This document shows, one piece after another, positions 1,759 to 20,672 of a stretch of DNA of 29,357 nt (position 1 is the stretch's first letter; every line of letters starts with the position of its first letter). Location of the stretch: contig NZ_JADJNN010000008.1 of NCBI RefSeq assembly GCF_016714285.1, positions 388,669 through 418,025 of the forward strand. The letters run 5' to 3'. The translations under genes and the position numbers were made by a program. This stretch comes from Nannocystis sp. Its GTDB lineage: Bacteria; Myxococcota_A; Polyangia; Nannocystales; Nannocystaceae. Under the pieces are notes generated by a model, which was not told where the DNA came from, did not search any database, and saw only the letters and a list, made by a program, of their open reading frames with translations.

Positions 1759-4371
1759 TCACTTCGGGACGACGCAGACCAGCAGGGGCTCGGTCTCGTT
1801 GTTGCTCTCCTTGCATTCGTTGAGGCCGCCCATGCCCTTGCCGTCGTCGTCGACGACCGCGTGGATGGTGACGGACTCGGTGACGTTCGGGACGCTGAGC
1901 GTGACCTGCTCGGCGGCGCCGGCCGCCAGCGGGCCCTTGGTGAACGCGGTGCCCAGGTAGCCCTTGTTCTGCTCGTAGAAGGACACGGGCACGCCCGGCC
2001 CGACGCCGAGGCAGCCGAGATTGGCGACCCACACGCTCATCGCAAGGTCGGGGCATTTGACGTAGTCGACGTCGAGGTCGTAGACCTGCAAGTCGGGGGC
2101 GCAGAAGGCCTTGGCGCCCTGGGCGTTGCGGCGGTAGCTGTTGTATGGATTCATCGCCGGCGTGGCCCAGCTCGGCGGCTCGGCGAGCGGGATCTCGCCG
2201 ACAAGGCCCACATTCGTGATGTGGTACGTATGTTGGTTCCACACGGGCCGGGTGGAGACCCAATTATCGAGTGAGTCGCCCCAGACCTCCAGGCCGCTGT
2301 CGAGCACGCCAGAGCCGCCGTCGTTGTTGGTCGGGAAGATGATCTCGGCCTTGAAATCGCCGTCGACGTCGGCGATGACTGGGTATTCGGTGCGGGTGCG
2401 CGAGCCGTTCTTGTCGCGGAACAGCACCTCGGCGTCGGTCATGTTGCCGTCGCACGCGGGGCCCTTGGGGTTCTTGAGGCAGTCGGGCTCGACGCCGGGG
2501 TAGATGCGCAGATAGACCTCATCGTTGTAGACGACCTCGTTACGGCCGTCGCCGTCGAAGTCGAAGACGGAGCTGCCCGTGACCTGGGAGGAGGTGTCAT
2601 CGGTCGGGGCGCTCCACAGCTTGGTGAAGGTCGCCGCGCCGTCGTACTTGTAGACGATGTACTGGCTCGATCCGGCCGCCGCGACCTCGGGCTTACCGTC
2701 GCCGTCGAAGTCGGCGATGTTGGGCGGGCCGCCGGAGCCGCCGTTGGGGATCGGCGCCTCGGCCAGCTTGGCGCCGGTCAGGGGGTTTAGGGCGTAGATC
2801 TTGGCGCTGCCGACGATGATCACCTCCGGCTTCTTGTCGCCGTTGAAGTCGGCGACCCCGCAGAAGCCGTCGACCACCGCGCTGTTCCACAGCTGCTTGA
2901 CGGTGAAGGTGTTGAGCGCGACCTTGCCCGAGAAGCCGAACGCGGTCTTACCGGCGATGAGCTCCTGGTAGCCGTCGCCGTCGAGGTCAGCGACGCAGCT
3001 GATCGGGCCCTGACCGTTCTTGCCCTCGCCCTGTGTGCCCTCGAACAGCTTCTTGCCCTTCGAGTTGAAGATCGCGTCGGCGTAGATGACCTCGGCGTCG
3101 CCGTCGTTGTCGAGGTTGGCGATCGCCACGGCGCTGCTGACGTTGGCGGCCGTGAACACGTCGGACTTCCACAGCGGCGCACCGGTGCTGCTAAACGCCA
3201 GGATGTTCTTGCCTTCACCTGGGACCAGGATCTCGGGCTTACCGTCGTAGTCGAGGTCGCCGACCGCCGGGCTGGCGGTGCTGTTGGTGTCGTAGTTGGT
3301 GTCGGTGTTGGTGAAGATCTTGGCGCCGTTGTCGCCGCGGATGATGCGGAGCACCCCGTTGGTGTCGGGCTGGCCGGCGGTGTAGCTGTTGAAGATGATC
3401 TCCGGGACGCAGTCCTGATCGAGGTCCACCACCGCGGCCGTCGATGACGATTGGTTGAACGTTGGTCGGTCGTTGACGCCGATGTCGAGGTGCGGCCAGC
3501 CCGGCGTACACACCTTCTTGACGCAGGACTCGGCGGTCTGGCACTGGCTGTCCATTGTGCAAGCCACGACCTTGCGCTTGCCCCACGTGAATGTGGGGAC
3601 CGGCTTGAAGGTCTGGGCCGGCGGCTTGTAGATGCAGTTGAGGTCGGCCTTCGACGGCAGGCAGAGCTTGAGCTCGGAGTCGCAGACATTGCCGATACCG
3701 CAGTCATTGGCGACCTTGGTCGCGCATTGCTGGGTGTCGCAGGCGTCGCCCGGCACCACGCATTCGCCGAGGTAACAGATCTCCTGACCGTTGCAGCAGT
3801 CCTGCTGCTGGCCGCAGGGTGGGGGACCGCCGCAGTCCTTTTGACATTGCGCCTCGATGCAGAGCTGGTCCGGGGCGCAGCACTCGTCGTTGCATTGCTT
3901 GTCGGGCGCACAACCCTGGCCGCCTGTGCTCCCCGAGGTGTCGGAGACCACGCCGCCGCTGCTGCCGGTCGACACCATCGTGTCGCTCTGGGCCCCGCCG
4001 GTGCTGCTGTTGGTGTCGCTGACGTTGCTCGTGCCGGGGTCGGTGTCGGGCAGCGTGGTGGCGGAGTCGGTGGTCGGGCCGCTGGTCGGTCCGGCCGAGG
4101 TCGGCCCCGTCGTGGGCTCGCTCATCGAGCCCTGGGAGGCCGAGCCCGTGCCCGTGGCTGAGTCGCTGACCGTCCCGCTCGCCTCTGTGGGTCCGGGGCC
4201 GGTCGGCGATGTGCCGCTGCTGCCCGCGCTGGTCCCGTCGGTGAGGCCACCGGTCATCCCGAAGGTGTCCGTCGTGCCCGTGGCGTCACCGCACGCGGTG
4301 AGCTGCGCGACTGTCAGGCCGAGCGAGACACGCACGACCACCCCATTCCATCCACCCCATGTCAGTACCAT
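1759..4371 (-). CDS. Large FG-GAP/VCBS-repeat (integrin-alpha-like beta-propeller) lipoprotein. It has an N-terminal Thr/Ser/Gly-rich tether, a Cys-rich module, and a conserved C-terminal WNQHTYHxTNV...EPPSW segment. The start is ambiguous: the ORF is open up to 4545.
   Basis: 928-aa ORF in the track. It contains repeated D-x-D/N-G-D-G-x-x-E calcium-binding FG-GAP blades: DLDYDGKPEILV, NLDNDGDAEVIY, DLDGDGYQELIAG, DFNGDKKPEVIIV, DFDGDGKPEVAAA, DFDGDGRNEVVY, DVDGDFKAEIIF. Two lipobox candidates are present, LTAC (start ATG 4371) and IAAAC (a GTG start further upstream). The low-complexity linker is TGTTDTFGMTGG...SSTGGAQSD. A Cys-rich insert reads CAPDKQCNDECCAPDQLC...C. GC3 is strongly biased. 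Confidence 0.85.
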   Translation of the reverse strand: MVLTWGGWNGVVVRVSLGLTVAQLTACGDATGTTDTFGMTGGLTDGTSAGSSGTSPTGPGPTEASGTVSDSATGTGSASQGSMSEPTTGPTSAGPTSGPTTDSATTLPDTDPGTSNVSDTNSSTGGAQSDTMVSTGSSGGVVSDTSGSTGGQGCAPDKQCNDECCAPDQLCIEAQCQKDCGGPPPCGQQQDCCNGQEICYLGECVVPGDACDTQQCATKVANDCGIGNVCDSELKLCLPSKADLNCIYKPPAQTFKPVPTFTWGKRKVVACTMDSQCQTAESCVKKVCTPGWPHLDIGVNDRPTFNQSSSTAAVVDLDQDCVPEIIFNSYTAGQPDTNGVLRIIRGDNGAKIFTNTDTNYDTNSTASPAVGDLDYDGKPEILVPGEGKNILAFSSTGAPLWKSDVFTAANVSSAVAIANLDNDGDAEVIYADAIFNSKGKKLFEGTQGEGKNGQGPISCVADLDGDGYQELIAGKTAFGFSGKVALNTFTVKQLWNSAVVDGFCGVADFNGDKKPEVIIVGSAKIYALNPLTGAKLAEAPIPNGGSGGPPNIADFDGDGKPEVAAAGSSQYIVYKYDGAATFTKLWSAPTDDTSSQVTGSSVFDFDGDGRNEVVYNDEVYLRIYPGVEPDCLKNPKGPACDGNMTDAEVLFRDKNGSRTRTEYPVIADVDGDFKAEIIFPTNNDGGSGVLDSGLEVWGDSLDNWVSTRPVWNQHTYHITNVGLVGEIPLAEPPSWATPAMNPYNSYRRNAQGAKAFCAPDLQVYDLDVDYVKCPDLAMSVWVANLGCLGVGPGVPVSFYEQNKGYLGTAFTKGPLAAGAAEQVTLSVPNVTESVTIHAVVDDDGKGMGGLNECKESNNETEPLLVCVVPK

Positions 4372-4606
4372 CGGGCGAGCCTGACACGCGGCCGCGATCC
4401 ACACAAGCGTGCTGGTCTGGCCGACGCTGCATGTGACAGCGAGCGGTCGTGGCCGTCGCCGGCGTTCGTGCAGGCGCACGAATGAGCGCTCCGCGGCACG
4501 GGCACAGACACCTGCGGCTGCGGCCGCGGCTGCGGCTGCGGGCATCCGGGCCCTGATCTGTGGTTGCGGTCGCTTGACGAGCCCGCGACGACGAGGCTTG
4601 CGCGCC

Positions 4607-4619
4607 TATCACGGTGATA
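4607..4619. promoter_or_regulatory. Perfect 13-bp palindrome TATCAC-G-GTGATA, 14 nt upstream of the SPFH gene's Shine-Dalgarno. It is a candidate operator, possibly for the Arc-like RHH protein encoded downstream in the same putative operon.
   Basis: Direct reading of cgcctATCACGGTGATatcatcc. The 6-bp arms with a 1-nt centre sit in a promoter-proximal position. Confidence 0.35.
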
Positions 4620-4632
4620 TCATCCTGCCATC

Positions 4633-4638
4633 AGGAGG
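4633..4638 (+). promoter_or_regulatory. Shine-Dalgarno sequence AGGAGG, 5 nt upstream of the SPFH gene ATG (4644).
   Basis: Sequence caGGAGGttttcATG. It is a perfect SD match with canonical spacing. Confidence 0.6.
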
Positions 4639-4643
4639 TTTTC

Positions 4644-5540
4644 ATGGCATCGATCCGCGAACATCGGGGCTTCACCCTCAACGGCTTCCTCGCGCTGGCG
4701 CTGTTCTTCGGGCTCGTCGCCTACGCCGGCAGCGTGGTCTACGAGGTCAGCACGGCCGCCGCGCTGCATGGCAACCCGCGCCCGCAGGACTTCATCCCGC
4801 TGTGGCAGGTCGGCGCCATCGGCCTGCTGCTGCTGATCTGCCTCGGCGGCTTCTTCGTCGTCCAGCCCAACGAGGCCCGCGTGCTGGTGTTCTTCGGCCG
4901 CTACGCCGGCAGCGTCGCCGACGCGGGCTTCTTCTTCGCCAACCCGCTGGCCGGGCGGCACACCATCAGCCTGCGGGTGCACAACTTCAACAGCGAGAAG
5001 CTCAAGGTCAACGACGCCCGCGGCAACCCGATCGAGATCGCCGCGGTGATCGTCTGGCGCGTCACGGATACCGCCCGGGCGCTGCTCGACGTCGAGAACT
5101 ACAAGGGCTTCGTCGCGGTGCAGTGCGAGACGGCGATCCGCGCGGTCGCGACTCGCTTCCCTTATGACAGCCACGACGGCGAGGATTCGCTGCGCAGCAA
5201 CCCCGACGAGGTGAGCGCCGCGCTCAAGACCGAGGTGCAGGCCCGCCTCGACGTCGCCGGCCTCGAGATCATCGAGGCCCGGCTGTCGCACCTCGCCTAC
5301 GCCGCCGAGATCGCCCAGACCATGCTGCGCCGCCAGCAGGCCGAGGCGATCGTCGCGGCTCGCCGGCAGATCGTCGAGGGCGCGGTCGGCATGGTGGAGA
5401 TGGCGCTGCGCCGCCTGCAGGAGACGGGCGTCGTTCAGCTCGACGAGGAGCGCAAGGCCGGGATGGTCAACAACCTCCTGGTCGCGCTGGTCGCCGACCG
5501 CGAGGCCCAGCCGGTGATCAACACCGGAACCCTCTACTGA
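4644..5540 (+). CDS. SPFH / band-7 (stomatin/prohibitin/flotillin-like) membrane protein.
   Basis: The ORF track gives 4614..5540; I prefer ATG 4644 because of the perfect RBS. There is an N-terminal TM helix ([19 protein letters not shown]), a second hydrophobic segment, then an SPFH core ([14 protein letters not shown]...[35 protein letters not shown]...[25 protein letters not shown]) and a coiled-coil-like C-terminus. Confidence 0.85.
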
Positions 5541-5553
5541 CGCCGGTGCCGTC

Positions 5554-5748
5554 ATGAGCGACAAGAAGCGCTTCCTCCTGCGCCTCGAGCCGGATCTCTA
5601 CGCCGCGCTCGAGCGCTGGGCCGCCGACGAGCTGCGCAGCGTCAACGGTCAGATCGAGTTCATCCTCAAGGAGGCGGCGCGCGGCAGCGGACGGCTGCGC
5701 GCGCCGGGTGAGGGCAAGGCCTCGCGGGGCCCGCCGCGGCCCCGTTGA
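5554..5748 (+). CDS. Small Arc/MetJ-type ribbon-helix-helix DNA-binding protein.
   Basis: 64 aa. It starts 14 nt after the SPFH stop, which suggests an operon. [37 protein letters not shown] matches the Arc repressor pattern (F-x-L-R...RSVN-x-x-I) of a beta-strand followed by two helices. The basic, Gly/Pro-rich tail is low complexity. Confidence 0.6.
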
Positions 5749-5862
5749 TCCGCACGGCCGCGGTCATGGCCGCCCCCAGGGCCACCGGCCTCGTTGCCCA
5801 CCCGCCTCGTTGCCCTCGGCCGCGGAGGATCACCGTGGTAAGCCGCGCGCGGATCCAGCATC

Positions 5863-7857
5863 ATGCGGCGGTCCATGCGACGTCCTGCACCCCGTAAGGC
5901 CGCGAGGCTCCGCCGCGCGGCGCTCCGTGCAACCGCCACCTTCGGCCTCGGCCTGAGCCTCCTGGCCTTCGGGACAGCCGAGGCCGCGCCCGCAGCTGGG
6001 CCCGCGTCGGCACCCGTGTCGGCACCCGTGTCGGGCTCTGGCGTCGCGCCGCCTTCTGCGGCCACGCCTGGCGCCGCGACGCTGTGGACGCCTGGCATCC
6101 GCGACGCCGCCCACCCGGGCCGCTTCGTCCGCGAGTTCGCCCGGCGCAAGGCCCTGCTGCGCGCCCCCGGTCCCGAGGCGGTGCTGGCACTGCTCGGCGC
6201 GATGGTCGAGCTGCAGGGCGAGATCCCCGGCCTCGAGATGGCGGCCTTCCTCGACGGCGCCCGCAAGCACCGCGAGCCGCTGGTCGCCAGCCACGCCGGC
6301 TACCTGCGCGCGCAGCTCGAGGAGGCCCGCGGCGATCAGGCGCGGGCCACCGCGATGTACCGCGCCGAGGGCTTCGTGCTCGACTGGCAGATCGTCGGCC
6401 CCTTCGAGAACACCGGGCGAGCCGGTCACGCAGCCGTCTACGCCCCCGAGACCGATCCCTTCTCCGCCGGTCAGAGCTTCGTCGGCAAGCTGCCCGGCGA
6501 GCCGCTGGTGTGGCGCCGCTTCGTCCACGAGCAGGCCCCGCGCGGCGCCTTCATCAACCTCGCCGACCTGCTCGACCCGCCCGAGCAGGCCGTCGGCTAC
6601 GCGACCGTGTGGGTCAAGGTCGATCGGCCTGGTCGCGCCGCGCTGCACCTCGGCACCAGCGGCGCCTACAAGGTCTGGCACGACGGCGTCCTGGTCGGCA
6701 GCGACGACACCTACCGTACGCCGACGCCGCTGCAGGCCAGCCACGCGCTCGAGCTGCGCGCGGGCTGGAACCGCATCCTCATCAAGCTGGCCACCGACGA
6801 CGGCATGTGGGGCTTCTACGCCCGGCTCAGCGCCCCCGACGGCCGCCCGCTCGCCGGTCTGGTGAGCACCCTCGAGCCGCAGTCGACGCCCGTGTCGCCT
6901 GGCGCGAAGGACAGGTCCGTTAGCACAGGTCCGAAGGGACAGGTCGCAAAGGCCAGCCCCGGCGCGGGCGGCGTCGCCAGCAGCCCGGTCGGCGTCGGCC
7001 GCCCCGGTGCGGGCGGCGTCGCCAGCAGCCCGGTCGGCGTCGGCCGCCCCGGCGTGCGCAGCCTGCGGGCCGCGCTCGAGGCGAAGGGGCAGGGGCCGCG
7101 CGCGCGCCCGGCCGACCGCCTCGCGCTGGTCGAGTTCTACCGCTGGACCTTGCCGTTTGCCCGCGAGGACCGCAGCGCCGTCGACCGCGCCCGCGAGGCC
7201 GACAGCGCGCTGGGCACCGCTCGCAGCGCGTACCTGCTGGCGACCCTCGACCCCGACCAGAACAACAGCCGCGTCGCCCTGCAGCGCGCCGTCGAACGCG
7301 CCCGCGCTGAAGGGTCCGGCTCCCGGGAGGGCGGCGCCCCGCTGCTGGCCACGCTCCTGGTCGAGCTCTCGCTGCGCGACCGTTACCTCGGCCTCGAGTC
7401 GCGGGCGCGGGCGCTGCTCGACGAGGCCTTCCGCACCGCGCCCGACGACGTCATCGTCGAGCTCGCGCTGGCCGAGCGACTCTCGGAGGACGGCTTCCCG
7501 CTGGCCGCGCTGGCCTGGGTCGGCGACATGCAGCGGCGCTACCCGGACTCGGCGATCCTGGCCCGTCAGCAGGCCGAGCGGCGCATGAACCTCGGCCGCA
7601 CCGAGGAGGCGCTGCAGATCCTCGGCACCCTGCAGGGCGCCCAGCCGACCGACCTCGGCGTCGCCGCGGAGATGCAGGACGGCCTGCTCCGGCTCGGCCG
7701 CGCCGACGAGGCGGTGGCGATCGCCCGCGAGCGCGTGCGTCTGGTCCCCGGCCTGCCCGAGAGCCACCGCGCCCTGGCCCGCTTCGAGGAGGCCCGCGGC
7801 GACCTCGCGGCCGCCCGCGCGGCGATGCAGCGGGCCGCCGATCTGGCCCCCGCATGA
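5863..7857 (+). CDS. N-terminal part (signal peptide, beta-sandwich-like domain, TPR repeats) of a large TPR-DUF3857-transglutaminase-like protein. The frame is interrupted at a C5 homopolymer at 7847-7851. It probably continues into 7853..9859.
   Basis: There is a signal peptide (MRRSMRRPAPRKAARLRRAALRATATFGLGLSLLAFGTAEA|AP) and a C-terminal half rich in TPR-like helices (LDEAFRTAPDDVIVELALAERL..., EALQILGTLQGAQPTDL...). The protein is collinear with the N-terminal 680 aa of the downstream paralog at 9867..13718. Confidence 0.8.
   Translation: MRRSMRRPAPRKAARLRRAALRATATFGLGLSLLAFGTAEAAPAAGPASAPVSAPVSGSGVAPPSAATPGAATLWTPGIRDAAHPGRFVREFARRKALLRAPGPEAVLALLGAMVELQGEIPGLEMAAFLDGARKHREPLVASHAGYLRAQLEEARGDQARATAMYRAEGFVLDWQIVGPFENTGRAGHAAVYAPETDPFSAGQSFVGKLPGEPLVWRRFVHEQAPRGAFINLADLLDPPEQAVGYATVWVKVDRPGRAALHLGTSGAYKVWHDGVLVGSDDTYRTPTPLQASHALELRAGWNRILIKLATDDGMWGFYARLSAPDGRPLAGLVSTLEPQSTPVSPGAKDRSVSTGPKGQVAKASPGAGGVASSPVGVGRPGAGGVASSPVGVGRPGVRSLRAALEAKGQGPRARPADRLALVEFYRWTLPFAREDRSAVDRAREADSALGTARSAYLLATLDPDQNNSRVALQRAVERARAEGSGSREGGAPLLATLLVELSLRDRYLGLESRARALLDEAFRTAPDDVIVELALAERLSEDGFPLAALAWVGDMQRRYPDSAILARQQAERRMNLGRTEEALQILGTLQGAQPTDLGVAAEMQDGLLRLGRADEAVAIARERVRLVPGLPESHRALARFEEARGDLAAARAAMQRAADLAPA
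6961..7050 (+). repeat. Two tandem copies of a 45-bp in-frame unit (ggYgcgggcggcgtcgccagcagcccggtcggcgtcggccgcccc) with one mismatch. It encodes GAGGVASSPVGVGRP twice.
   Basis: Direct reading: 6961-7005 versus 7006-7050 differ only at the third base (c/t). Confidence 0.9.
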
Positions 7858-7927
7858 CGCCGACATCCACGCCCAGATCGGCCGCCTCGCCGCGCGCGCG
7901 GGCGACGTCTCGGCCGCGATCCAGAGC

Positions 7928-9859
7928 GTGCGCCGCTCGCTCGAGCTGCGCCCGCAGCAGCCCGACCTCCGCGACTTCCTGGCGACCCTCGACCAGGGCG
8001 CCCGCGACGACCTGCTCGCCCGCTACCCCGTCGACCTCGAGGAGCTCGCGGCGATCGCGACGCCGGCGGCGTGGAAGGGCAAGGACGCCGGCATCCTGCT
8101 CGCGCGCACGGCCGTGCGCGTGCTCCCCAACGGCCTCAGCGAGCGCCTCGATCACCGCGTCATCCGCGTGCTCGACGACCGCGGCATCCGCTCGCAGGCG
8201 ATGCAGGGCGTCGTCTTCGACCCGGCCGAGGCCTACGTCGAGGTCCGCCGCGCCCGCGTGCGCCGGGCCGAGGGCGGGGTCGAGGAGATCGGCGACGCCA
8301 GCGTCGTCGCCCTCACCGACGCCGGTTACCGCATGTTCTACGACCAGCGCCAGCAGCGGGTCACCTTCAACGGCCTGCGCGTGGGTGACACCCTCGAGGT
8401 CGCGTTTGTCCGCCGGGACACCGCGGCGCGCAACAAGTTCGACGACTACTTCGGCGAGATCGCGGCCCTCGAGGACGTGCTGCCGCAGCGCCGCCGCGAG
8501 TACATCCTCGAGGCGCCGGCGGGGCGCAAGCTGTTCTTCAACCAGCCGGTCGAGGCCAGCCCCGGCAAGGAGCCCGGCACGACGCTCTACAAGCTGGTGG
8601 TCGGCGAGCGCAAGGGCATCCGCCCCGAGGGCAACATGCCGGGGTGGACCGAGATCGCGAAGTACCTCCACGTCAGCACCTTCGCCGACTGGGACGCCGT
8701 CGGTCGCTGGTACTGGAGCCTCGTCAAGGAGCAGCTGGTCGTCGACGCCAAGATCCGCGCCGCCGTCAACGAGGTCCTGCTCGGCCTGCCCGAGGGCGCC
8801 GACGAGCGAGCCAAGGTGCGCGCGCTCTACAAGCACGTGATCACCAGCACCCGCTACGTCGGCCTCGAGTTCGGCATCCACGGCTTCAAGCCCTACCGCA
8901 CCACCGACGTCTACGACCGCCGCTTCGGCGACTGCAAGGACAAGGCGAGCCTGCTCAAGGTGATGCTCGCCGAGGCCGGCATCGCGTCGAACCTCGTGCT
9001 GGTGCGCACCCGCGATCAGGGCACGATCGGCGCCACGCCGGCCTCGCTGTCCGCGTTCAACCACGCCATCACCTACGTCCCGAGCCTCGATCTCTACCTC
9101 GACGGCACCGCCGAGTTCTCCGGCCCGGAGGAGCTGCCGACCGGCGATCAGGGCGCGACCGTGTTGATCGTCCGCGACGGCGCCGGCGCCGAGCTGCGCA
9201 CGATCCCGACCAGCAAGCCCGGTGACAACGCCCAGACGATCCGCCAGACCATCGCCCTCGCGGCCGACGGCAGCGCCCGCGTGCAGCACGAGCTCACCGT
9301 CACCGGCGCCGGCGCGGCCGGCTGGCGCAGCATCTTGCAGAGCGCCGACAACCGCAAGGAGCGGCTCACCCACGCCTGGGGCGGCCAGTTCCCGGGCGTG
9401 GTCGTCGCCGACATCGAGGCGCCGACGCTCGGCGACGTGCTGCTGCCGGTCAAGCTGCGCAGCAGCTGGCAGGTGCCGAGCTGGGCCCAGACCCAGGGCG
9501 ACGGCCTGCGCTTCCCGGCGCTCGGCTACCGCACCGGCCTCACGCGCCAGCTCGCCGGTCAGGCCAAGCGCGAGCACGACCTCGTGATGGCCGCGCCGTC
9601 GATCGAGGACAGCCAGCTCGCGTACCAGCTGCCCCGGGGCTGGAAGATCGTCCAGGCCCCCGCCGACAAGCAGATCGACACGCCGCTGGCGAGCTTTCGC
9701 CTGCGCGTCGAGCAGAAGGGCGACACGGCCCAGGTCAGCACCCACATCGAGTACCGCAAGTCCCGCTTCACGCCCGCCGAGTACCGGGCCCTGCGCGACT
9801 TCCTCAGCCAGGTCGACGGCAGCCTCGATCAGGTGTTCGAGATCCGTCCGGAGCGCTAG
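7928..9859 (+). CDS. C-terminal part of the same protein: a DUF3857-like domain plus a transglutaminase-like cysteine-protease core with an intact Cys-His-Asp triad. The reading frame is open upstream to ~7850 and overlaps the end of the previous ORF in the +1 frame.
   Basis: FGDCKDKASLLKVMLAEAGI (Cys codon 8932-8934), SAFNHAITYVP (His) and LYLDGTAEF (Asp) form a transglutaminase-like core. Upstream of the annotated start, the same frame reads HDADIHAQIGRLAARAGDVSAAIQSVRRSLELRPQQPDL. That is a TPR helix pair continuing the TPR array of the preceding ORF. Confidence 0.8.
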   Translation: MRRSLELRPQQPDLRDFLATLDQGARDDLLARYPVDLEELAAIATPAAWKGKDAGILLARTAVRVLPNGLSERLDHRVIRVLDDRGIRSQAMQGVVFDPAEAYVEVRRARVRRAEGGVEEIGDASVVALTDAGYRMFYDQRQQRVTFNGLRVGDTLEVAFVRRDTAARNKFDDYFGEIAALEDVLPQRRREYILEAPAGRKLFFNQPVEASPGKEPGTTLYKLVVGERKGIRPEGNMPGWTEIAKYLHVSTFADWDAVGRWYWSLVKEQLVVDAKIRAAVNEVLLGLPEGADERAKVRALYKHVITSTRYVGLEFGIHGFKPYRTTDVYDRRFGDCKDKASLLKVMLAEAGIASNLVLVRTRDQGTIGATPASLSAFNHAITYVPSLDLYLDGTAEFSGPEELPTGDQGATVLIVRDGAGAELRTIPTSKPGDNAQTIRQTIALAADGSARVQHELTVTGAGAAGWRSILQSADNRKERLTHAWGGQFPGVVVADIEAPTLGDVLLPVKLRSSWQVPSWAQTQGDGLRFPALGYRTGLTRQLAGQAKREHDLVMAAPSIEDSQLAYQLPRGWKIVQAPADKQIDTPLASFRLRVEQKGDTAQVSTHIEYRKSRFTPAEYRALRDFLSQVDGSLDQVFEIRPER

Positions 9860-9866
9860 GCAACCC

Positions 9867-12800
9867 ATGTCATTCCCGTCCGCACCTGTCCTTCGGGCCA
9901 TGTTGTCCTTCGCCGCGATCGCGGCCCCGATCTCGCTGCCGGCGTGCAAGCACAAGGCCGAGACCACGCAGGCGCCGTTCACCGCCGACGCCGCCCGCCA
10001 GCGCGCCGCGGAGCTCGAGCGTCAGCTCGTCAAGCAGCCGCAGGACGACGTCGCCGCGCTCGAGCTGGCCAACCTGCAGTGGTTGCACCTGCGGGCCACC
10101 GCGAAGGCGCTCCCCACCTTCGATCGCCTGGCCGCGCGGGGCAACCCCTACGCCCAGGTCGCGCGCATGATCATCGCCGACGCGCGCCTCGACCTCGTCA
10201 CCGTGCGCAGCATGGCCCACGCGCTGATCAAGGGCGCCGCCGCGGCGCCGGGCCTCGCCCCTGCCGATGTCGCCGAGCGGGCCGCGCTGGCCGAGCTCGG
10301 CGCCCGCTACATCGGCGAGAACCACGGCGAGCTGCCCGACGACGACCTCGACTTCACGCGCTTCTTCGCGGAGGTGGAGCGCCTGCCGCTCCCGGTCGCC
10401 GTCACCCAGCCGCTGCTGAGCCAGCGCGCCAGCATCGCTCGCCGCCTCGATCAGCCCTACCTGGCCTACTACGAGGCTCAGGGCTGCGTGCGCGCCTGGC
10501 AGGTCGGCAAGGTCGAGGGCCACCTCGAGGCCTTCGAGCTGCGCCGCGCCGCGGCCGACCCCGCCGCGTTCGAGCTCGACCCGCAGGCCGTGCTCACGCC
10601 GCTGTCCTGCGTCGTCCGCACCTGGAACCCGACCCCGCGCGCCGGCATGCGGCGCATGCGAAGCTACCTCGACGTCCCTGGCGAGCAGCTCACCCTCAAC
10701 ATCAGCAGTCAGGAGGCGGTCCGCGTCTACCTCGACGGCGCGCCGATCCACCGCAGCGACCGCAGCGACCGCTGGCCCCGCGGCGACAACACCCTCGAGC
10801 TCAAACTACAGCCTGGCATCCACCGCCTCGACGTCCACACCGCCGTGCCGCGCGAGAAGGTCTGGGTCCTGGTCCGCGCCACCGACCACCGCGGTCAGGC
10901 CGTGCCGGCCAGCGTCGAGGCGAAGGGCCCGCTGGCCCCGGCCTTCACAGGTCAGCCCGTGCGCCCGCGTTCGCCGTTCTTCCCATATGCACAGGGCCCG
11001 ATCGCCGGCCCGAGTTACGCGCCGCTGCGCATGCTGCTGGCCGCCTCCGACGCGATGGCCGACGCCAACAGCGACGACGCCGAGGGCTTCATCAAGGCGC
11101 TGCGCCACGCGGGCCCGAACTTCGCCGAGGGCGAGCTGCTGGTCGCGGCCTTCGAGACCGGCGACCCCACGCGTGACCGCAGCACCTCGACGGCGCGCCA
11201 GCGGGCGGCGATCGAGCGGGCCCTGGCGATCGACCCGGGCCTCGCCCGCGCGAGGATCCGCCTGCTCGAGATGGGCCTCGAGCGCGGCGAGACCAGCGAG
11301 GTCCTCGACGCCGTCACCGCGCTCGGCGACAAGGCCCTGCGCAACGTCCCGGGCGAGCTGCTGCGCTACCAGGCCTACCTCGCCCGCGGCAACGAGTTCC
11401 AGTCCGACGCGGCCCTGGCCCGCGCCGCCGCGATCCACCCGGAGCACTGCGCGGTGCTCAAGGCCCAGCGCGTGGTGGCCCAGCGCCGCGGCGACGTCGC
11501 GGCCGAGGACGCGCTCTCCGCGAAGGTCGAGACCTGCCCCGGCACCACCGGCACGCGCGCCCGCCTGGCCGCCCGCCGCGGTCGCCGCGACGAGGCCCGC
11601 GCGCTCTACAAGAAGCTGCTCGAGCGCACCCCCGACGACGTCGACGTGATGGCCGAGCTCGCCGAGCTGGCGATCAGCGAGGACAAGCTCGACGAGGCCC
11701 TCGGCTACCGGCGCAAGATCCTCGGCCTGAACCCCTACGCGACCAGCATGCACGTCGCCATCGCCGACCTCCAGGCGCGCATGGGCGACCCCGCGGCCGC
11801 GCGCGCCAGCGTCGGCGAGGCGCTGGTCCGGGTCCCGCAGAGCATGGCGATGTGGCAGGTCGCGCAGAACATCGGCATCCCGGACGACCTCGAGGCGCTG
11901 CGCGTCGACGGCCTGCCGATCGTCGCGGCCTACCGCGCCGGCAAGCACGACCACGCCGGCGTCGGCGAGGTGCTGGTGCTCGACCGCAGCGTCACCCGCG
12001 TGTACCCCGACGGCAGCCAGCGCCACATCATCCACACGATCACCGAGCTGCGCTCCAAGGAGGCGATCGACCGCTACGGGGAGATCGAGCCGCGCGAGGG
12101 GACCCGCACGCTCACGCTGCACAGCATCAAGGCCGACGGCCGCGTGTTCGAGCCGGAGTCGATCCCCGAGAAGGACGGCCTCAGCCTGCGCGGCCTGCAG
12201 ATCGGCGACTTCGTCGAGTACGAATTCATGTTCGAGCGCGAGGAGCTCGGCCTGCTCCCGGGCTACGTCGACCTCTCGACCTTCCGCTTCCAGTCGCCCG
12301 AGACCCCGTTCCACATCTCGGAGATGATCGTCGCCTACCCGAGCGACATGCCGCTCAAGGCCGAGCTCCGGGCCGGCGCGCCGCAGGCCGTGGTCACCCG
12401 TCTCGCTGCGGTCGCTGGCCTCGCTGCGGGCGCTGGCCAGGGCGAGCTCACCGTGCAGCACTGGCGCGTCGACCGTTCGCCGCGCCTCGGCGTCGAGCCG
12501 CAGATGCGCAACAGCCTGTTCGAGGTCCCGAACGTGCGCGTGTACAGCGACGTCGACACCGCCGCGTGGCTGTCGGCGCTGGGCCTGCGCATCTACACCG
12601 GCCAGCGCAGCAACCTCGAGCTGCGCCAGCTGACCCGCAAGCTGATCGCCGGCAAGACCTCGCCGCGCGCCCGCCTGGAGGCGCTGCACCGCTGGGTCGT
12701 CGAGAACGTCGAGGAGGTCGGCGAGCTCACCGTGCCGGCCACGCTCACGCTCTCGGCGCGCAAGGGCAGCGGCATGATCCTGCTCAAGACCATGCTGCGC

Positions 12801-13718
12801 GAGGCCGGCCTGCGCGCGGAGCTGTGGATCGCCCGCGACAACTTCGGCGCCGACATCAAGCCCGGCGGCAACCCGCTGTTCGAGTCCTACGATTCGCCCT
12901 ACCTGGCCGTTTGGACAGGTGAGGGCGAGACCCCGACGATGGTCATCACCGGCTCCAAGGTGCTGCCGCTCGGCTACCTCGTGCCCGGCCTCTCGGGCGC
13001 GGCCGGCTTTCGCATCCCGCTCAGTGAGAGCGACACGGCGCCCGGCGCCGTTCGCTTCCCGGTCCGGCCGGCCGCGCTCGCCGACCGCCGCAGCTACCGC
13101 GTCCGCCTCGAGCTCGGCCGCGACGGCAGCGGCCGCGTCGAGGGCAGCATCGAGCTGCAGGGCATGGAGGCCGCGGCCTGGCGCGACGTGCTGCGAAACC
13201 TCGACCGCGACCGCATCAACGACGGCTTCGAGCGGGCCGAGCTGTCGGTGCTGTTCCCCGGCGCCACGGTCGAGCTCGCGGACCTGCAGATCGAGCAGGA
13301 GAAGCAGCTGGACGCCCCGCTGCGCCTGATCTTCCAGGGCGGCATCCGCGGCGCCGTGGTGGCCCAGGGCGGCGAGCTGCTGATGCGCGCCGCGACCGTG
13401 CCGCTCAACGTCGGCCTCGGCTACACGGCGCTGCCCGAGCGCAAGACCGGCTACGCGATCCCCTACGCGCCGTTGCTCGATGCCGAGGTGACGATCCAGA
13501 TCGCCGGGGCCAAGTTCACCGGCACGCCCAGCGCCGAGACGATCGACACGCCGCAGGGCAGCTACCACCGCAGCGTCGAGGTCGGCGCGGAGGGCCTGAC
13601 CGTGCGCACGCGTGCGACTCTCGGCACCGGCGTGTTCGGCCCCGAGGTCTACCCCGCGCTCGCCAGCCTGACCCGCCGGGTCAAGGCCGCCGAGGACCAG
13701 GTCATCCGCGCCCGCTGA
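9867..13718 (+). CDS. Large (1283 aa) putative lipoprotein with the same architecture: TPR, DUF3857-like, then a transglutaminase-like fold whose catalytic residues are degenerate (predicted pseudo-enzyme).
   Basis: N-terminal signal with lipobox (MLSFAAIAAPISLPAC). TPR-like helices span ~aa 400-680 (ALYKKLLERTPDDVDVMAELAELAI..., EALGYRRKILGLNPYATSMHVAIADL...). A DUF3857-like segment follows (VLVLDRSVTRVYPDGSQRHIIHTITELRSKEA). The transglutaminase core aligns to the upstream paralog, but the Cys position reads SARKGSGMILLKTMLREAGL (no Cys) and the His and Asp positions are also replaced. It starts 7 nt after the previous stop. Confidence 0.85.
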   Translation: MSFPSAPVLRAMLSFAAIAAPISLPACKHKAETTQAPFTADAARQRAAELERQLVKQPQDDVAALELANLQWLHLRATAKALPTFDRLAARGNPYAQVARMIIADARLDLVTVRSMAHALIKGAAAAPGLAPADVAERAALAELGARYIGENHGELPDDDLDFTRFFAEVERLPLPVAVTQPLLSQRASIARRLDQPYLAYYEAQGCVRAWQVGKVEGHLEAFELRRAAADPAAFELDPQAVLTPLSCVVRTWNPTPRAGMRRMRSYLDVPGEQLTLNISSQEAVRVYLDGAPIHRSDRSDRWPRGDNTLELKLQPGIHRLDVHTAVPREKVWVLVRATDHRGQAVPASVEAKGPLAPAFTGQPVRPRSPFFPYAQGPIAGPSYAPLRMLLAASDAMADANSDDAEGFIKALRHAGPNFAEGELLVAAFETGDPTRDRSTSTARQRAAIERALAIDPGLARARIRLLEMGLERGETSEVLDAVTALGDKALRNVPGELLRYQAYLARGNEFQSDAALARAAAIHPEHCAVLKAQRVVAQRRGDVAAEDALSAKVETCPGTTGTRARLAARRGRRDEARALYKKLLERTPDDVDVMAELAELAISEDKLDEALGYRRKILGLNPYATSMHVAIADLQARMGDPAAARASVGEALVRVPQSMAMWQVAQNIGIPDDLEALRVDGLPIVAAYRAGKHDHAGVGEVLVLDRSVTRVYPDGSQRHIIHTITELRSKEAIDRYGEIEPREGTRTLTLHSIKADGRVFEPESIPEKDGLSLRGLQIGDFVEYEFMFEREELGLLPGYVDLSTFRFQSPETPFHISEMIVAYPSDMPLKAELRAGAPQAVVTRLAAVAGLAAGAGQGELTVQHWRVDRSPRLGVEPQMRNSLFEVPNVRVYSDVDTAAWLSALGLRIYTGQRSNLELRQLTRKLIAGKTSPRARLEALHRWVVENVEEVGELTVPATLTLSARKGSGMILLKTMLREAGLRAELWIARDNFGADIKPGGNPLFESYDSPYLAVWTGEGETPTMVITGSKVLPLGYLVPGLSGAAGFRIPLSESDTAPGAVRFPVRPAALADRRSYRVRLELGRDGSGRVEGSIELQGMEAAAWRDVLRNLDRDRINDGFERAELSVLFPGATVELADLQIEQEKQLDAPLRLIFQGGIRGAVVAQGGELLMRAATVPLNVGLGYTALPERKTGYAIPYAPLLDAEVTIQIAGAKFTGTPSAETIDTPQGSYHRSVEVGAEGLTVRTRATLGTGVFGPEVYPALASLTRRVKAAEDQVIRAR

Positions 13719-13757
13719 GGCGTTGCCGCAGTCGCGCGGACGGGCGACGATGCCCCG

Positions 13758-15032
13758 ATGTCTCCCCGCGTCCCCCTGGTCCTCCTCCTCGCCCACGCGG
13801 GCGCCTGCGGATCGTCGTCGGAAGCCTCGACCACCGGCGACGTGAGCAGCAGCAGCGGCGAGAGCAGCAGCGGCGAGCCCGTCACACCGACCACCGGCGA
13901 GGCCGCGACCGGCAGCGACGACAGCACGAGCAGCGCAGGCAGCGACGCGAGCAGCAGCGGCTCACTCGCCACCAGTGACACCGGCGACACCGGCGAGACC
14001 AGCGACACCGGTGATCCGGGCATCGTCTACCCCGAGCCCGACTGGCAGCCCGGCGATCCGATGGCGCACGGCTTCGACCCCGCGGGCCTCGCCGGCATGG
14101 CCGCGCTCGCCGAGTCGAGCGACTCGAACTGCCTGGTCGTCACCCAGGGCGGCGCCTTGATCGGCGAGTGGTACTGGAACGGCTTCGACGCGGCCAAGAA
14201 GCAGGACAACGTCTACTCGGTCACCAAGTCGGTCACCAGCGCTCTCGTCGGCATCGCCGCCGAAGAGGGCCTGCTCGACATCGAGGCTCCGGTCGGCTTC
14301 ACCGAGTGGGCCGGCAGCGACAGCGAGGCGGTGACGATCCGCAACCTCATCAGCAACAACTCGGGGCGCGAGTGGAGCTTCAACAGCGACTACATCGCCA
14401 TGGGCGTCGCCCCCGACCAGACCCAGTTCGCCCTCGACCTCGGCCAGGACAAGCCGGTGGGCACCTTCTGGGAGTACAACAACGCCGCGATCCAGACCCT
14501 GGAGCGCGCGCTCAAGACGGCCACCGCCGGGCCGCTCGGGGACTACGCCCAGAGTCGACTGTTCGACGCGATCCACATGAGCGCCGACATGGGCAAGGAC
14601 GGCGAGGGCAACGCGCTGACCTACCAGGGCGTCTCGGCGTCGTGCCGCGATCTGGCGCGCTTCGGCTACCTCTACCTGCGCGGCGGCACCTGGGCCGATG
14701 ACGTCCAGGTCGTCCCCGCCGCGTGGGTCAGCGCCACGATCACGCCGAGCACCGCCTTCAACAGCGCCTACGGGTACATGTGGTGGCTCAATCGCCCGGG
14801 CCACTGGATCTTGCCCTCGGTGCCGCTGCGCACCGAGGGCGACGGCAAGCTGATCCCCGCGGCGCCCGACGAGGTGTTCGCGGCGATCGGCGCCTTCGGT
14901 CAGTTCGTGGTCGTCGATCCCACCACCGATTCGGTGTGGGTGCGACTCGGGCCGATCGACCTCGGCGACGCGTCGGGCTTCGGCAAGCTCAATGCGCTGT
15001 GGGACGCCTTCGAGGCGGCGCAAATTCCGTAG
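13758..15032 (+). CDS. Beta-lactamase-family serine hydrolase (PBP/esterase-like) lipoprotein with a Ser/Thr/Asp-rich tether.
   Basis: Signal plus lipobox (MSPRVPLVLLLAHAGAC|GSS). Low-complexity linker ~aa 20-95. S-x-x-K motif YSVTKSVTSALVG and Y-x-N motif WEYNNAA. The C-terminal GAFGQFVVVDP segment is typical of class C / EstB-like hydrolases. Confidence 0.8.
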   Translation: MSPRVPLVLLLAHAGACGSSSEASTTGDVSSSSGESSSGEPVTPTTGEAATGSDDSTSSAGSDASSSGSLATSDTGDTGETSDTGDPGIVYPEPDWQPGDPMAHGFDPAGLAGMAALAESSDSNCLVVTQGGALIGEWYWNGFDAAKKQDNVYSVTKSVTSALVGIAAEEGLLDIEAPVGFTEWAGSDSEAVTIRNLISNNSGREWSFNSDYIAMGVAPDQTQFALDLGQDKPVGTFWEYNNAAIQTLERALKTATAGPLGDYAQSRLFDAIHMSADMGKDGEGNALTYQGVSASCRDLARFGYLYLRGGTWADDVQVVPAAWVSATITPSTAFNSAYGYMWWLNRPGHWILPSVPLRTEGDGKLIPAAPDEVFAAIGAFGQFVVVDPTTDSVWVRLGPIDLGDASGFGKLNALWDAFEAAQIP

Positions 15033-15059
15033 ACGTCGTAGAAGCCGTGGCCGCAGGGC

Positions 15060-15692
15060 TCAGCCAGCGAGCGCCTGGCCGGCCCGCGCCAGCGCCGACA
15101 CGCAGGCCAGCGCCGCGTCGAGCTGGGCGTCGCTCGGCAGCGCGGCGCACGGCCAGATGAGCAGGACGATGCCGTTTTGGTGCAGCAGGTAGGGCCGCGG
15201 CAGCTGCATCAGCGCCTTGCGCACGGCCTCGTCGCACAGCTGCGGCGCCCGGGCGCGGTGGTTGCTCCACAGCTGCAGGCCGGGCTCGCTGTCGACGCGC
15301 TGGCCGGGGTGGCGGGCCGTCTGGGCGACCGGCGAGCTGTGGGCGAACAGCTCGCAGACGAGCCATGGGCTGCGCGGCAGGCGGGTCTCGAGGAACACCC
15401 CGATCTCGCCGTGGGCGACCGCGCCCTGGCTGAGGTGGAAGCTGGCGCCCGCGACGGCGCCGATCACCGCGAAGCCGCCGCTGCGCTCGACCAGGTGCCA
15501 GCCGCGGCGCTTGGCGAGCGCGGCCCAGTGGGCCCGGTCGCGGGCCAGGCTGCGGCGGTGGCGGATCCACAGGTTGGCCAGGGCGAGCCCCGCCGCGGCC
15601 GCGAACGCGGCGCCGAGCAGCAGCCCGCGCAGCGAGGGCGGGCGCTCGAGGAGGGCGTGCAGGGCCGGGTGCGCGTGGCGGGAGGCGAGCAC
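15060..15692 (-). CDS. Hypothetical small membrane protein with one predicted TM helix. GTG start.
   Basis: 210 aa with a varied, non-shadow composition (W, F, H, Y, I, N, K present). TM segment LLLGAAFAAAAGLALANLWI. GC3 is strongly biased in this frame, whereas the overlapping plus-strand ORF 15177..15803 has the composition of an antisense shadow. Confidence 0.5.
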   Translation of the reverse strand: MLASRHAHPALHALLERPPSLRGLLLGAAFAAAAGLALANLWIRHRRSLARDRAHWAALAKRRGWHLVERSGGFAVIGAVAGASFHLSQGAVAHGEIGVFLETRLPRSPWLVCELFAHSSPVAQTARHPGQRVDSEPGLQLWSNHRARAPQLCDEAVRKALMQLPRPYLLHQNGIVLLIWPCAALPSDAQLDAALACVSALARAGQALAG

Positions 15693-15799: not shown

Positions 15800-17173
15800 C
15801 TAGACCTTGAGGCCCGCGAGCGGTCCGGTGCTGTCGTCGCCGAAGCTCGGCGTCGGCACCTCGAAGGCCTCGGCGATCGAGATGAAGAGGTTGGCGAGCG
15901 GGGTCTTGTCCGGGACCTTGAGGTGGCGGCCCGGCGTGATCGCGCCGCCGAGCTTGCCGGCGACCAGCACGGGCAGGTCATCGTGGTTGTGGGCGTTGCC
16001 GTCCGCGATCTCCGAGCTCAGATAGACCACGGTGTTGTCGAGCAGGGTGCCGTCGCCGTCGGGGCTGTCCTTGAGCTTCTGCAGCAGTTTGGCGAACTGC
16101 GCGACCTCCCAGGTGTCGATGATCTCGAGCTTGGCGAAGTTCTCGGGCAGGTCCTGGTGGTGGCTGATCTCGTGGTGGGCCCCCGGGGCGCCGATGAACG
16201 CGTGGTCGCGGCCGCTGCCGGCGTTCTCGAGCATGAAGGAGATGACGCGGGTCTGGTCGCACTGCAGCGACAGCACCATCAGCTCGGTCATGAGGTCGAC
16301 GTGGGTCGCGTGGTCCTGGTAGGCGCCGGAGAACATCGCCGGCAGCTCGCAGACGGCCTCGGTCTTCTCGTTGCTGACCCGCTTCTCGAGGTCGCGCAGG
16401 CCGGTGAGGTACTGCTCTAACTTGTCGCGGTCGGTCTTGCCGAGCTTCTTCTGCAGATCGAGCACCTGGTCGTTGGCGTAGTCGATGACGCTGAGGCGGT
16501 TGGCGTGGCGGATCGCCAGCTGCTCGGCGGTCGCGTCGGGGTCGAAGCCGGAGAACAGCAGGTCGAAGATCACCTGCGGGTCGGACAGCTTGGGCAGCGG
16601 CGTCTTCGGGTCGGCCCACGAGATGTTGCTGGTGTAGGCGCACGAGTAGCCGCTGTCGCAGTTGCCCATGGTGCCGCCGCTGGCGGTGCCGAACTGCAGC
16701 GAGCGGTGCGGCGTCGCGTCGCCGATCTGGTTGGCGATCAGCTGGTCGATCGAGATGTTGTTGACGAAGTCGACCTCGGACTTGAGCACGTGCGTGCAGG
16801 TGAGGAAGGCCGAGGTGCCGCCGGCGTGGTCGCCGGGGCCCTCCGGCTTGGCCGGCAGGTTGGCCAGGCCGCTCAGGACCAGCACGTCGCCCTTGAGGTC
16901 GACCATCGCGTTGGCGTCGACCAGCGGCGCCAGGATCTTGGTGAGCGCGTAGTCGGGGCCCTCGCTGGCCGGGGTCCACGAGGGCATGTGGATGCCGCAG
17001 GGCAGGTAATAGAACAGGGCGCGCAGCGGCGAGGGCATCGGCGCTGCGCTGGCGCGTCCTCCGACTTTGGGCGCGAGCGCCTCGAGCCAGGGCAGGGCGA
17101 TCAGGGCGCCGGCGCCTCCGAGCATGGCCCGGCGAGACAGAGTGCGGCGAGGAGGGGTGGAGCTGCGCGTCAT
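15800..17173 (-). CDS. Tat-signal protein of the DUF1552 family (it may instead be the related DUF1501 family). This is the usual partner of PSD/PSCyt3 multi-domain proteins.
   Basis: The ORF track extends it to 17701 through an Arg/Pro-rich shadow. I place the start at ATG 17173-17171, where MTRSSTPPRRTLSRRAMLGGAGALIALPWLEALA is a twin-arginine signal with the typical ALPxLE motif. AGGAGA is 8 nt upstream. It contains an HHEISHH histidine cluster. It sits 32 nt downstream of the PSD/PSCyt3 gene on the same strand. Confidence 0.8.
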   Translation of the reverse strand: MTRSSTPPRRTLSRRAMLGGAGALIALPWLEALAPKVGGRASAAPMPSPLRALFYYLPCGIHMPSWTPASEGPDYALTKILAPLVDANAMVDLKGDVLVLSGLANLPAKPEGPGDHAGGTSAFLTCTHVLKSEVDFVNNISIDQLIANQIGDATPHRSLQFGTASGGTMGNCDSGYSCAYTSNISWADPKTPLPKLSDPQVIFDLLFSGFDPDATAEQLAIRHANRLSVIDYANDQVLDLQKKLGKTDRDKLEQYLTGLRDLEKRVSNEKTEAVCELPAMFSGAYQDHATHVDLMTELMVLSLQCDQTRVISFMLENAGSGRDHAFIGAPGAHHEISHHQDLPENFAKLEIIDTWEVAQFAKLLQKLKDSPDGDGTLLDNTVVYLSSEIADGNAHNHDDLPVLVAGKLGGAITPGRHLKVPDKTPLANLFISIAEAFEVPTPSFGDDSTGPLAGLKV

Positions 17174-17205
17174 GGTGGTGGTTCTCCTGGGCTCGCGGGC
17201 GCGGT

Positions 17206-20645: not shown

Positions 20646-20672
20646 CCGCGCCGGGCGAGTGCGCGGATAACG

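Follow-up and report, generated by a model that had tools for sequence, protein, structure and literature searches.

The tandem genes A and B

The stretch of DNA analysed here, hereafter called the window, comprises 29,357 nucleotides (nt) of contig NZ_JADJNN010000008.1 of Nannocystis sp. (assembly GCF_016714285.1), with a G+C content of about 72%. Two large adjacent genes on its forward strand, which we call A and B, are the subject of this paper. Gene A encodes a secreted protein of about 1330 amino acids (aa), composed of a signal peptide, a helical and beta-sandwich-like region, an array of tetratricopeptide repeats (TPRs), and a C-terminal module of the type found in protein BDI_1141 (PDB 3kd4). 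Gene B, which the sources name only as a ‘tetratricopeptide repeat protein’ or a ‘hypothetical protein’, is best described as a pseudo-enzyme paralog of A: it has neither the sequence match nor the triad of the transglutaminase-like family, but keeps the family's fold. An initial annotation of the window had proposed such a pair, of one catalytically intact and one degenerate member, and the open reading frames (ORFs) and motifs that it quoted are all present where it placed them.

In the sequence as given, gene A is divided between two reading frames, a matter to which we return below. Its 5' part holds the signal peptide, the N-terminal helical region, the beta-sandwich-like region, a Pro/Gly linker and the greater part of the TPR array. 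The 7-nt spacer between A and B suggests that the two genes are translated together, and they are probably co-transcribed as well. When we scanned positions 4300-15300 for promoters and terminators, we found no promoter-like sites, and terminator-like sites were no commoner than expected by chance.

Homology and predicted fold

A comparison of A with B by BLASTP aligns their C-terminal 330 aa at 27% identity (E 2e-10), and a further match at the TPR/DUF3857 junction (E 4e-6) is colinear with the first. When the A-family profile is aligned with the B-family profile using hhalign, the match extends over 1082 columns, placing A positions ~60-1210 on B positions ~142-1275, with a probability of 100% and E 6.7e-68. 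As judged from these alignments, A and B are full-length colinear paralogs with the same order of regions, in agreement with the initial annotation. The N-terminal beta-sandwich-like region, which had likewise been proposed for both proteins, is common to the two families in the profile alignment; its own database matches are all insignificant, the best being RhaB_D2 (E 0.011) and a stretch near the N-terminus of a beta-galactosidase chain (residues 135-189, E 0.14).

The Pfam domains of A, all above threshold, are DUF3857, Transglut_core and DUF3858 (scores in Table 1), and many A orthologs carry a precomputed match to Transglut_core (PF01841). In B only TPR models exceed their thresholds, and the DUF3857 and DUF3858 models match below threshold at the expected positions. 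Some B orthologs do pass the DUF3857 threshold (PF12969). No match to PF01841 was found in B even at E-values up to 5, and none is precomputed for any of the B orthologs. TPR_14 exceeds its cut-off in both proteins and TPR_19 in B alone; both proteins also match TPR proteins in the PDB. NCBIfam offers no model for either A or B, only TPR equivalogs that score far below threshold.

AlphaFold models of the two C-terminal halves have confidence (pLDDT) values of 91.2 for A and 89.9 for B, and the order of their secondary-structure elements matches. In searches with Foldseek, the best solved match to the A model is 3kd4 (E 3.4e-36, TM 0.80). The best solved match to the B model is the same structure (E 1.9e-26, TM 0.67), and it covers the whole DUF3857/core/DUF3858 module. 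In these models the central domain of B keeps the transglutaminase, or papain-like, fold.

Table 1. Features of genes A and B, numbered from the first base of the window.
Feature	Position	Strand	Basis and remarks
Gene A, 5' part	5863..7857	+	664 aa, ends at premature TGA caused by the frameshift; ORF list, translation, TPR_14 match, single-ORF orthologs of 1220-1357 aa
Gene A signal peptide (…LLAFGTAEA/AP)	5863..5985	+	Sec type without lipobox; translation
Gene A beta-sandwich-like region (WQIVGPFEN … WGFYARLS)	6355..6867	+	hhalign match to the equivalent region of B
Gene A TPR array	7060..7963	+	spans the frameshift site; TPR_14/TPR_19 matches; A-family profile positions ~408-647 match PDB TPR proteins
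Run of C with one extra base, +1 frame disruption of gene A	7847..7851	+	sequence
Gene A, 3' part, in shifted frame	7850..9859	+	last TPRs, DUF3857, transglutaminase-like core, DUF3858, stop; translation, Pfam, AlphaFold model
Gene A DUF3857 beta-sandwich domain	8126..8581	+	PF12969, E 4.6e-20; model strands E54-E225
Gene A transglutaminase-like core	8645..9202	+	PF01841, 24.6 bits (cut-off 23), E 3.3e-5
Gene A putative catalytic residues	Cys 8933-8935, His 9062-9064, Asp 9101-9103	+	alignment to the A family
Gene A DUF3858 C-terminal domain	9230..9850	+	PF12970, E 6.8e-9; phmmer match to 3kd4 residues 368-492
Gene B, full-length paralog of A without catalytic triad	9867..13718	+	1283 aa; starts 7 nt past the stop codon of A
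Gene B lipobox (L-P-A-C)	9936..9947	+	predicted lipidated Cys 9945-9947, Lys at +2
Gene B beta-sandwich-like region	10449..10961	+	hhalign to the A region; conserved Cys 10485-10487 and 10608-10610
Gene B TPR array	11019..11846	+	TPR_19, TPR_16, TPR_14 and PDB TPR matches; conserved Cys 11448-11450 and 11535-11537
Gene B DUF3857-like beta-sandwich, best-conserved part of B	11967..12479	+	sub-threshold PF12969, E 0.017; model strands E61-E231; most of the columns conserved at >=85% lie here
Gene B degenerate transglutaminase-like core	12513..13055	+	3-residue deletion removing the Cys, inside SARKG/SG (12753-12773); His to Ser 12894-12896; Asp to Ile 12948-12950
Gene B DUF3858-like C-terminal domain	13086..13712	+	sub-threshold PF12970, E 0.071; BLASTP 27% identity to the A C-terminus, E 2e-10; model

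Both genes contain tandem repeats that preserve the reading frame. In A, a 12-nt unit is repeated right after the signal peptide (6001-6034), and a 45-nt unit is present 2.3 times at 6951-7054, duplicating GAGGVASSPVGVGRP in the Pro/Gly linker. In B, an 18-nt unit is present 2.1 times at 12402-12438 (LAAVAG/LAAGAG), at a place where P0074, an ortholog of 97% identity, is 7 residues shorter. These repeats are length-variable linkers.

The active site is intact in A and lost in B

The motifs that carry the putative catalytic residues of A are GDCKDKA (8927-8947), NHAITYV (9059-9079) and YLDGT (9095-9109). The Cys of GDCKDK, the His of NHA and the Asp of LDGT are invariant, and occur in their canonical order, in all 67 of the database homologs of A; they are likewise invariant in 64 of 64 relatives taken from genome loci. 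Thus A does keep the Cys-His-Asp triad that the initial annotation ascribed to it.

The corresponding motifs cited for B were SARKGSG (12753-12773), ESYDSPY (12882-12902) and VWTGEG (12909-12926), and B was said to have lost all three catalytic residues. The alignments bear out the loss itself. The Cys column is a gap of three residues (G-DCK-D becomes G---S/N/H) in each of the 43 database homologs of B, and it is a gap again in 43 of 43 B proteins from genome loci. In the database alignment the position of the His holds Ser, Ala, Val, Thr or others, and that of the Asp mostly hydrophobic residues; over both alignments the substitutes are varied and for the most part non-catalytic. What requires correction is the site of the third substitution, because the counterpart of the catalytic Asp is not in VWTGEG: it is the Ile of TMVITGS, some 10 residues further on. 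The triad is missing from all of the roughly 230 B relatives examined, and the GDCK-type motif occurs in none of 148 further B-like cluster representatives.

The possibility that B is still an enzyme, acting through some other nucleophile or active site, is suggested by the retention of the fold and by several acidic residues that are moderately conserved in the B core. We consider it very unlikely. Among 85 B sequences, no column of the core reaches 70% conservation of a Cys, Ser, Thr or His that could serve as a substitute nucleophile, and conservation of 85% or higher is confined to columns of W, V, A, G, G, R, P, G and Y. Moreover, when the domains of B are set against those of A, the core shows the least constraint, and B lacks a Pfam Transglut_core match. 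The description of B as a pseudo-enzyme therefore stands, and the alignment of the two cores, taken with the structure predictions, yields one fold, one common best match (3kd4), and a triad in A only.

B is maintained by selection

Every B ortholog retrieved, at identities of 41-97%, is an intact ORF, and within the DNA examined B is unbroken in 41 of the 42 loci where it is paired with A (see below); in the remaining locus, L013, it is split into two ORFs. A HMMER search with the B core against 1.84 billion cluster representatives finds 1105 proteins at E <= 1e-3, of which 238 are at E <= 1e-30. Among the best 150 of these, 148 are new, and the B profile gives all 148 a higher score than does the A profile. 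The B family thus comprises at least 150 clusters at 50% identity.

The ratio of non-synonymous to synonymous substitution rates (dN/dS), computed by the method of Nei and Gojobori, which is crude at this codon bias, is 0.315 for A and 0.324 for B when the window is compared with its closest ortholog locus, L082; with the locus L001 the values are 0.17 (B) and 0.14 (tail of A). It is also instructive to compare the two genes domain by domain. Across the 37 loci from which both genes are available, pairwise identity in the transglutaminase core averages 0.58 for A and 0.30 for B. The flanking domains differ far less: 0.40 in A versus 0.41 in B for DUF3857, and 0.33 versus 0.27 for DUF3858. Since the drop in B is confined to the core, constraint has been lost at exactly the former catalytic domain, and it has been kept on the domains to either side. 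By these measures of conservation, B is a maintained pseudo-enzyme under purifying selection, and not a decaying gene.

A neighbour-joining tree of the cores contains one branch that parts all A from all B, and the deletion that removes the catalytic Cys is common to the whole B family. On this phylogenetic evidence, the A-B unit derives from one ancient tandem duplication. Over the same 37 loci the distances among A proteins correlate with those among B proteins (r = 0.96), a value that is expected of co-inherited neighbours and does not prove interaction.

Secretion signals and cysteines

The signal peptide of B ends in a lipobox, …SLPAC/KHK, whose Cys is near-invariant in the B family. A regular expression for the lipobox matches 30 of 40 Nannocystaceae B proteins, of which 28 have Lys or Arg at position +2; the proteins that it misses have GC or GAC before a K or R. 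Among 99 distant full-length B-like representatives, 77 have a lipobox, with varied residues at +2. The N-termini of the A family are different: 62 of 65 are plain signal peptides without a lipobox, and only 3 of the 65 contain the motif. Accordingly, B is a predicted lipoprotein and A a protein with a predicted plain signal peptide. This split between the two signals is a new observation of the present analysis.

In Myxococcus xanthus, Lys at +2 has been associated with lipoproteins of the inner membrane (PMC3222651). For B in the Nannocystis clade, the Lys at +2 is only a hint of retention in the inner membrane.

Four cysteines are kept across the B family and are not found in A: those of QGC (Cys 10485-10487) and LSC (Cys 10608-10610) in the beta-sandwich-like region, and those of HC (Cys 11448-11450) and TC (Cys 11535-11537) in the TPR region. 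These cysteines are probably paired in two disulfides, which would fit a location outside the cytoplasm.

B usually follows A in myxobacterial genomes

We scanned one genome per species and obtained 80 loci around homologs of A, of which 60 are informative in that they include at least 3.5 kb of downstream DNA. In 42 of the 60, a B-type gene lies directly after A on the same strand. The pairing of the two genes as neighbours, which the initial annotation left as a matter to be surveyed, is therefore conserved well beyond Nannocystis: the paired loci include all 14 of the Nannocystaceae type, together with many Polyangia, Sandaracinus and Haliangiales-type metagenome-assembled genomes (MAGs) in which A is only 35-40% identical to A of the window.

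The flanking genes vary among loci, so that the conserved unit is A then B alone. For example, in L082 a P450 gene lies between the Band-7 gene and A, and a kinase gene follows B; in Nannocystis ILAH1, the pair is preceded by an acyl/acetyl-CoA synthetase-type gene and followed by a Lon protease gene. We also considered a larger operon that would take in two further genes of the window, the SPFH/Band-7 gene upstream of the pair and the beta-lactamase-family gene downstream of it. As a conserved unit this was rejected, because these neighbours are not kept: relatives of the SPFH or beta-lactamase genes are found nearby in only a few of the 80 loci.

The frame disruption in gene A

The ORF that begins at 5863 ends at a TGA, and its frame goes on one base later, to 9859; the sequence at the junction is GAT CTG GCC CCC GCA TGA. 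Without one of the C at 7847-7851, the two parts join into one ORF of 1331 aa. Using this repaired A as the query against 5.8 billion proteins, we retrieved about 58 full-length orthologs, which measure 1220-1357 aa and share 47-88% identity with it. Their hosts are Nannocystis, Paraliomyxa, Nannocystaceae and other Myxococcota; remoter relatives reach as low as 27%.

A much closer comparison is provided by a sister genome. The beta-lactamase-family protein encoded 3' of B is identical to MBK7826806.1, from a Nannocystis sp. MAG, and a cluster mate of that protein leads to the sister MAG contig L085 (JADKFZ010000004.1), which is 99.5% identical to the window over 21.2 kb, with identical gene order. 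For B, the A fragment and the SPFH protein of the window, by contrast, the protein collection contains no exact copy. In L085, gene A is called as a single intact gene of 1276 aa. Both L085 and the closest ortholog, L082, have four C, not five, in the run, and no ortholog has the extra base. The extra C is, in addition, the sole 1-nt indel in 21 kb of alignment with L085. Between the two genomes A differs at 25 codons, 24 of which lie downstream of the frameshift; in the repaired frame, 20 of the differences are synonymous and 5 are non-synonymous. This excess of synonymous differences indicates that the half of the gene past the frameshift was read in the frame of the orthologs until very recently. 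Furthermore, because the extra C is absent from a sister of 99.5% identity and from all orthologs, it must be either a very recent, strain-specific lesion or an error of assembly or consensus.

The single-nucleotide differences from L085 are distributed in patches, with one in 4245-7855 followed by 16 in 7855-8761, and the frameshift stands at the leading edge of the latter, SNP-rich tract. The tract may have arisen by recombination, or it may mark a place where the MAG consensus changes from one strain haplotype to another; such an origin would favour an assembly artefact as the explanation of the indel.

Suppose, then, that the frameshift is real, so that the active enzyme of this strain is a pseudogene or two fragments and B is the only intact member of the pair. 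The extra C is present in the sequence as given, and its being the only 1-nt indel in 21 kb implies that homopolymer errors are not rife in the assembly. On the other hand, the extra base falls in a homopolymer of a metagenome-assembled genome, the gene is intact in the sister and in all orthologs, no second lesion is found in the 2 kb downstream, and the codon differences from the sister are mostly synonymous, as described above. We hold a real lesion to be possible, though on balance unlikely; and even if real it would be very recent, and uninformative on how the pair works. A programmed +1 ribosomal frameshift, in which a tRNA-Pro on the CCC, two codons ahead of the TGA, would shift onto CCG, is most improbable. 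A slip at CCC-G would yield exactly an ortholog-like protein, but the stop codon does not adjoin the slip codon, and every ortholog is a single ORF. We have rejected this mechanism, since the CCC-G site is kept nowhere, neither in the orthologs nor in the sister genome.

The initial annotation remarked that the active copy is the one carrying the frame disruption. The extra base is indeed in the sequence, and yet it is no feature of the system: the disruption is a homopolymer assembly error or a very recent lesion, and forms no part of the A-B pair. Although the frameshift gave the locus an odd appearance, it is not biologically informative.

Other genes of the window

Between the SPFH/Band-7 gene (4614-5540) and gene A there is an ORF of 63 aa (5555-5746, forward strand) that matches RHH_5 just under the cut-off (E 2.3e-5), with weaker matches to Arc, HicB and ParD-like models. 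A gene of 63-64 aa also follows Band_7 in L082 and L085. The ORF may encode a small regulator that binds DNA and is coupled to the SPFH gene.

Downstream of the pair, the reverse strand of 15800-19374 carries a DUF1552 (HXXSHH) gene and a DUF1592/1588/1595/1587/1585 gene with a CBM60-like insert. This DUF1552/DUF1592-type pair is kept downstream of A and B in L001, L082 and L085. Relative to L085, the window has 12 bases fewer, a multiple of three, around 17057-17067, in a gap-rich stretch of the N-terminal part of the DUF1552 gene. The neighbourhood is also rich in secreted repeat proteins (19560-21800 on the forward strand; 23221-24948 and 1759-4545 on the reverse strand). The neighbours include two FG-GAP/VCBS-type proteins, a DUF4215 and uromodulin-like D8C protein followed by a 375-aa protein without a Pfam match, and a DsbD-thioredoxin gene. 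The entire region looks devoted to envelope or extracellular proteins.

Interpretation of the pair

The interpretation that we favour, at somewhat better than even confidence, is that A and B form a tandem-duplicate unit in which a secreted, catalytic A is tethered, stabilised or gated by its lipid-anchored, catalytically dead partner B. Under this proposal A would supply the catalysis, as a cysteine peptidase, amidase or transamidase at work in the cell envelope or extracellularly, and its substrate would be recruited through the TPR and beta-sandwich regions. B would be a non-catalytic, membrane-tethered partner, which would either bind A by means of the homologous TPR and DUF modules, as in paralogous heterodimers, or bind the same substrate. 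In doing so, B would localise, stabilise or gate the activity of A, or present the substrate to it. The reading of the pair as enzyme and regulator, which the initial annotation had raised, is in our analysis plausible. A bolder version is quite doubtful: that A and B are an obligate heteromeric machine of the envelope in which lipid-anchored B captures or gates soluble A, so that a proteolytic or cross-linking switch resembling LapG/LapD would have been built from a duplicated enzyme, kept across much of Polyangia and Nannocystales, and directed at some component of the envelope or matrix.

The principal alternative is that B is an independent, neofunctionalised lipoprotein with a binding or scaffold role exercised through its TPR, DUF3857 and DUF3858 surfaces, that it has no physical or regulatory tie to A, and that its adjacency to A is a relic of tandem duplication and shared transcription. 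The conservation of B under purifying selection, with non-catalytic domains as well conserved as those of A, speaks for this alternative. Several further results weigh against the tethered-partner proposal and in favour of an independent role, or at least reduce the force of the evidence for partnership. In 18 of the 60 informative loci, A has no adjacent B. These solo loci include every named genome of Myxococcus, Corallococcus, Pyxidicoccus and Archangium in the sample (L024, L028, L035, L040, L043, L045, L046, L080 and others), as well as several MAGs labelled Myxococcaceae or Myxococcales; in the four that we inspected, the genes 3' of A are mostly on the opposite strand. Therefore, either A can work alone, or B is located elsewhere in those genomes. 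If B served as the anchor of A, one might suppose that an A without B should itself be a lipoprotein, but this idea is unsupported, since the A proteins of 17 solo loci are not obviously lipoproteins, and a simple anchor role for B gains no support from them. The solo A genes of Myxococcaceae, together with the absence of an obvious lipoprotein signal from their products, keep the independent role of B alive. The variation of the +2 residue outside the Nannocystis clade, moreover, makes the membrane in which B resides uncertain. Adjacency and correlated divergence are what one would expect of any vertically inherited tandem duplicate, even without physical partnership, and the interaction of A with B, the activity of A, and its substrate are all inferred rather than observed. 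(One of the solo records, L028, is labelled ‘Comamonas sp. KCTC 72670’, and the N-terminus of its A is the same as that of Myxococcus sp. Y35; the record may be mislabelled or contaminated.)

What tells against the independent role is the persistence of the arrangement. The order of A then B, on the same strand and with a short spacer, has outlasted the divergence of A to 35-40% identity while all of the flanking genes have changed, and such persistence exceeds what relic adjacency usually gives; the 7-nt spacer, in suggesting co-translation, points the same way. We therefore regard an independent B as a serious but rather unlikely alternative, and prefer the proposal that B is a tethered partner of A.

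In either case, a myxobacterial enzyme family has a large, dead sister family of predicted lipoproteins (at least 150 clusters at 50% identity), which is usually encoded right after the enzyme, and this implies the re-annotation of several hundred proteins. Among DUF3857/transglutaminase-like/DUF3858 proteins there is one solved structure, 3kd4, and the pair gives an experimental handle on the family, in host organisms known for their elaborate envelope and matrix biology. Since pairs of enzyme and pseudo-enzyme, as well as pseudo-enzymes of the transglutaminase fold, are already established, no concept is overturned.

Comparison with known systems

Our searches of databases and literature found no characterised member of the DUF3857/transglutaminase-like/DUF3858 family. 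In the literature we found no description of a myxobacterial transglutaminase-like pair, and DUF3857 was met only in unrelated proteomics papers. The closest relative of known structure, BDI_1141 of Parabacteroides distasonis, has the same three-domain C-terminal module as A, and A matches it by sequence too. At 505 aa, however, 3kd4 is without the ~650-aa extension of A, with its N-terminal helical, beta-sandwich-like and TPR regions. Its structure record bears the depositors' name ‘putative protease’ and states no function, and in the sources consulted no paired inactive paralog is recorded for it.

Among eukaryotes, erythrocyte protein 4.2 and Rad4/XPC are pseudo-enzymes of the transglutaminase fold with binding or scaffold roles. 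Unlike B, these proteins are cytoplasmic or nuclear, are not encoded beside active relatives, and are without the other domains of A and B.

LapG and LapD show the logic that we propose for A as a soluble protein and B as a lipoprotein, namely control of an activity by recruitment to a membrane protein. LapD is unrelated to LapG in sequence, and is not a dead paralog of it. LapG is a periplasmic transglutaminase-like cysteine proteinase, and what controls it is its recruitment to LapD, a transmembrane receptor (PMC4359373, PMC3032545). LapG is small, unlike A (181 residues in chain 4fgo_A), and LapD, unlike B, is a receptor for cyclic diguanylate (c-di-GMP), according to PMC4359373. Nor is an adhesin substrate or a c-di-GMP component seen beside A and B.

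The Csd1-Csd2 pair of Helicobacter pylori combines a peptidase with a paralog, and csd1 and csd2 are adjacent genes. The pair consists of an M23/LytM peptidase and a paralog with incomplete catalytic residues, the monomers of which are similar in structure and form a heterodimer through their helical domains (PMC5053510). The differences are that Csd1-Csd2 is a zinc metallopeptidase system acting on peptidoglycan, that its fold is another one, that its proteins are small, and that the abstract of PMC5053510 reports no split between a lipoprotein and a soluble partner of the kind predicted for B and A. Csd1-Csd2 is nevertheless the best precedent for how the A-B pair could work.

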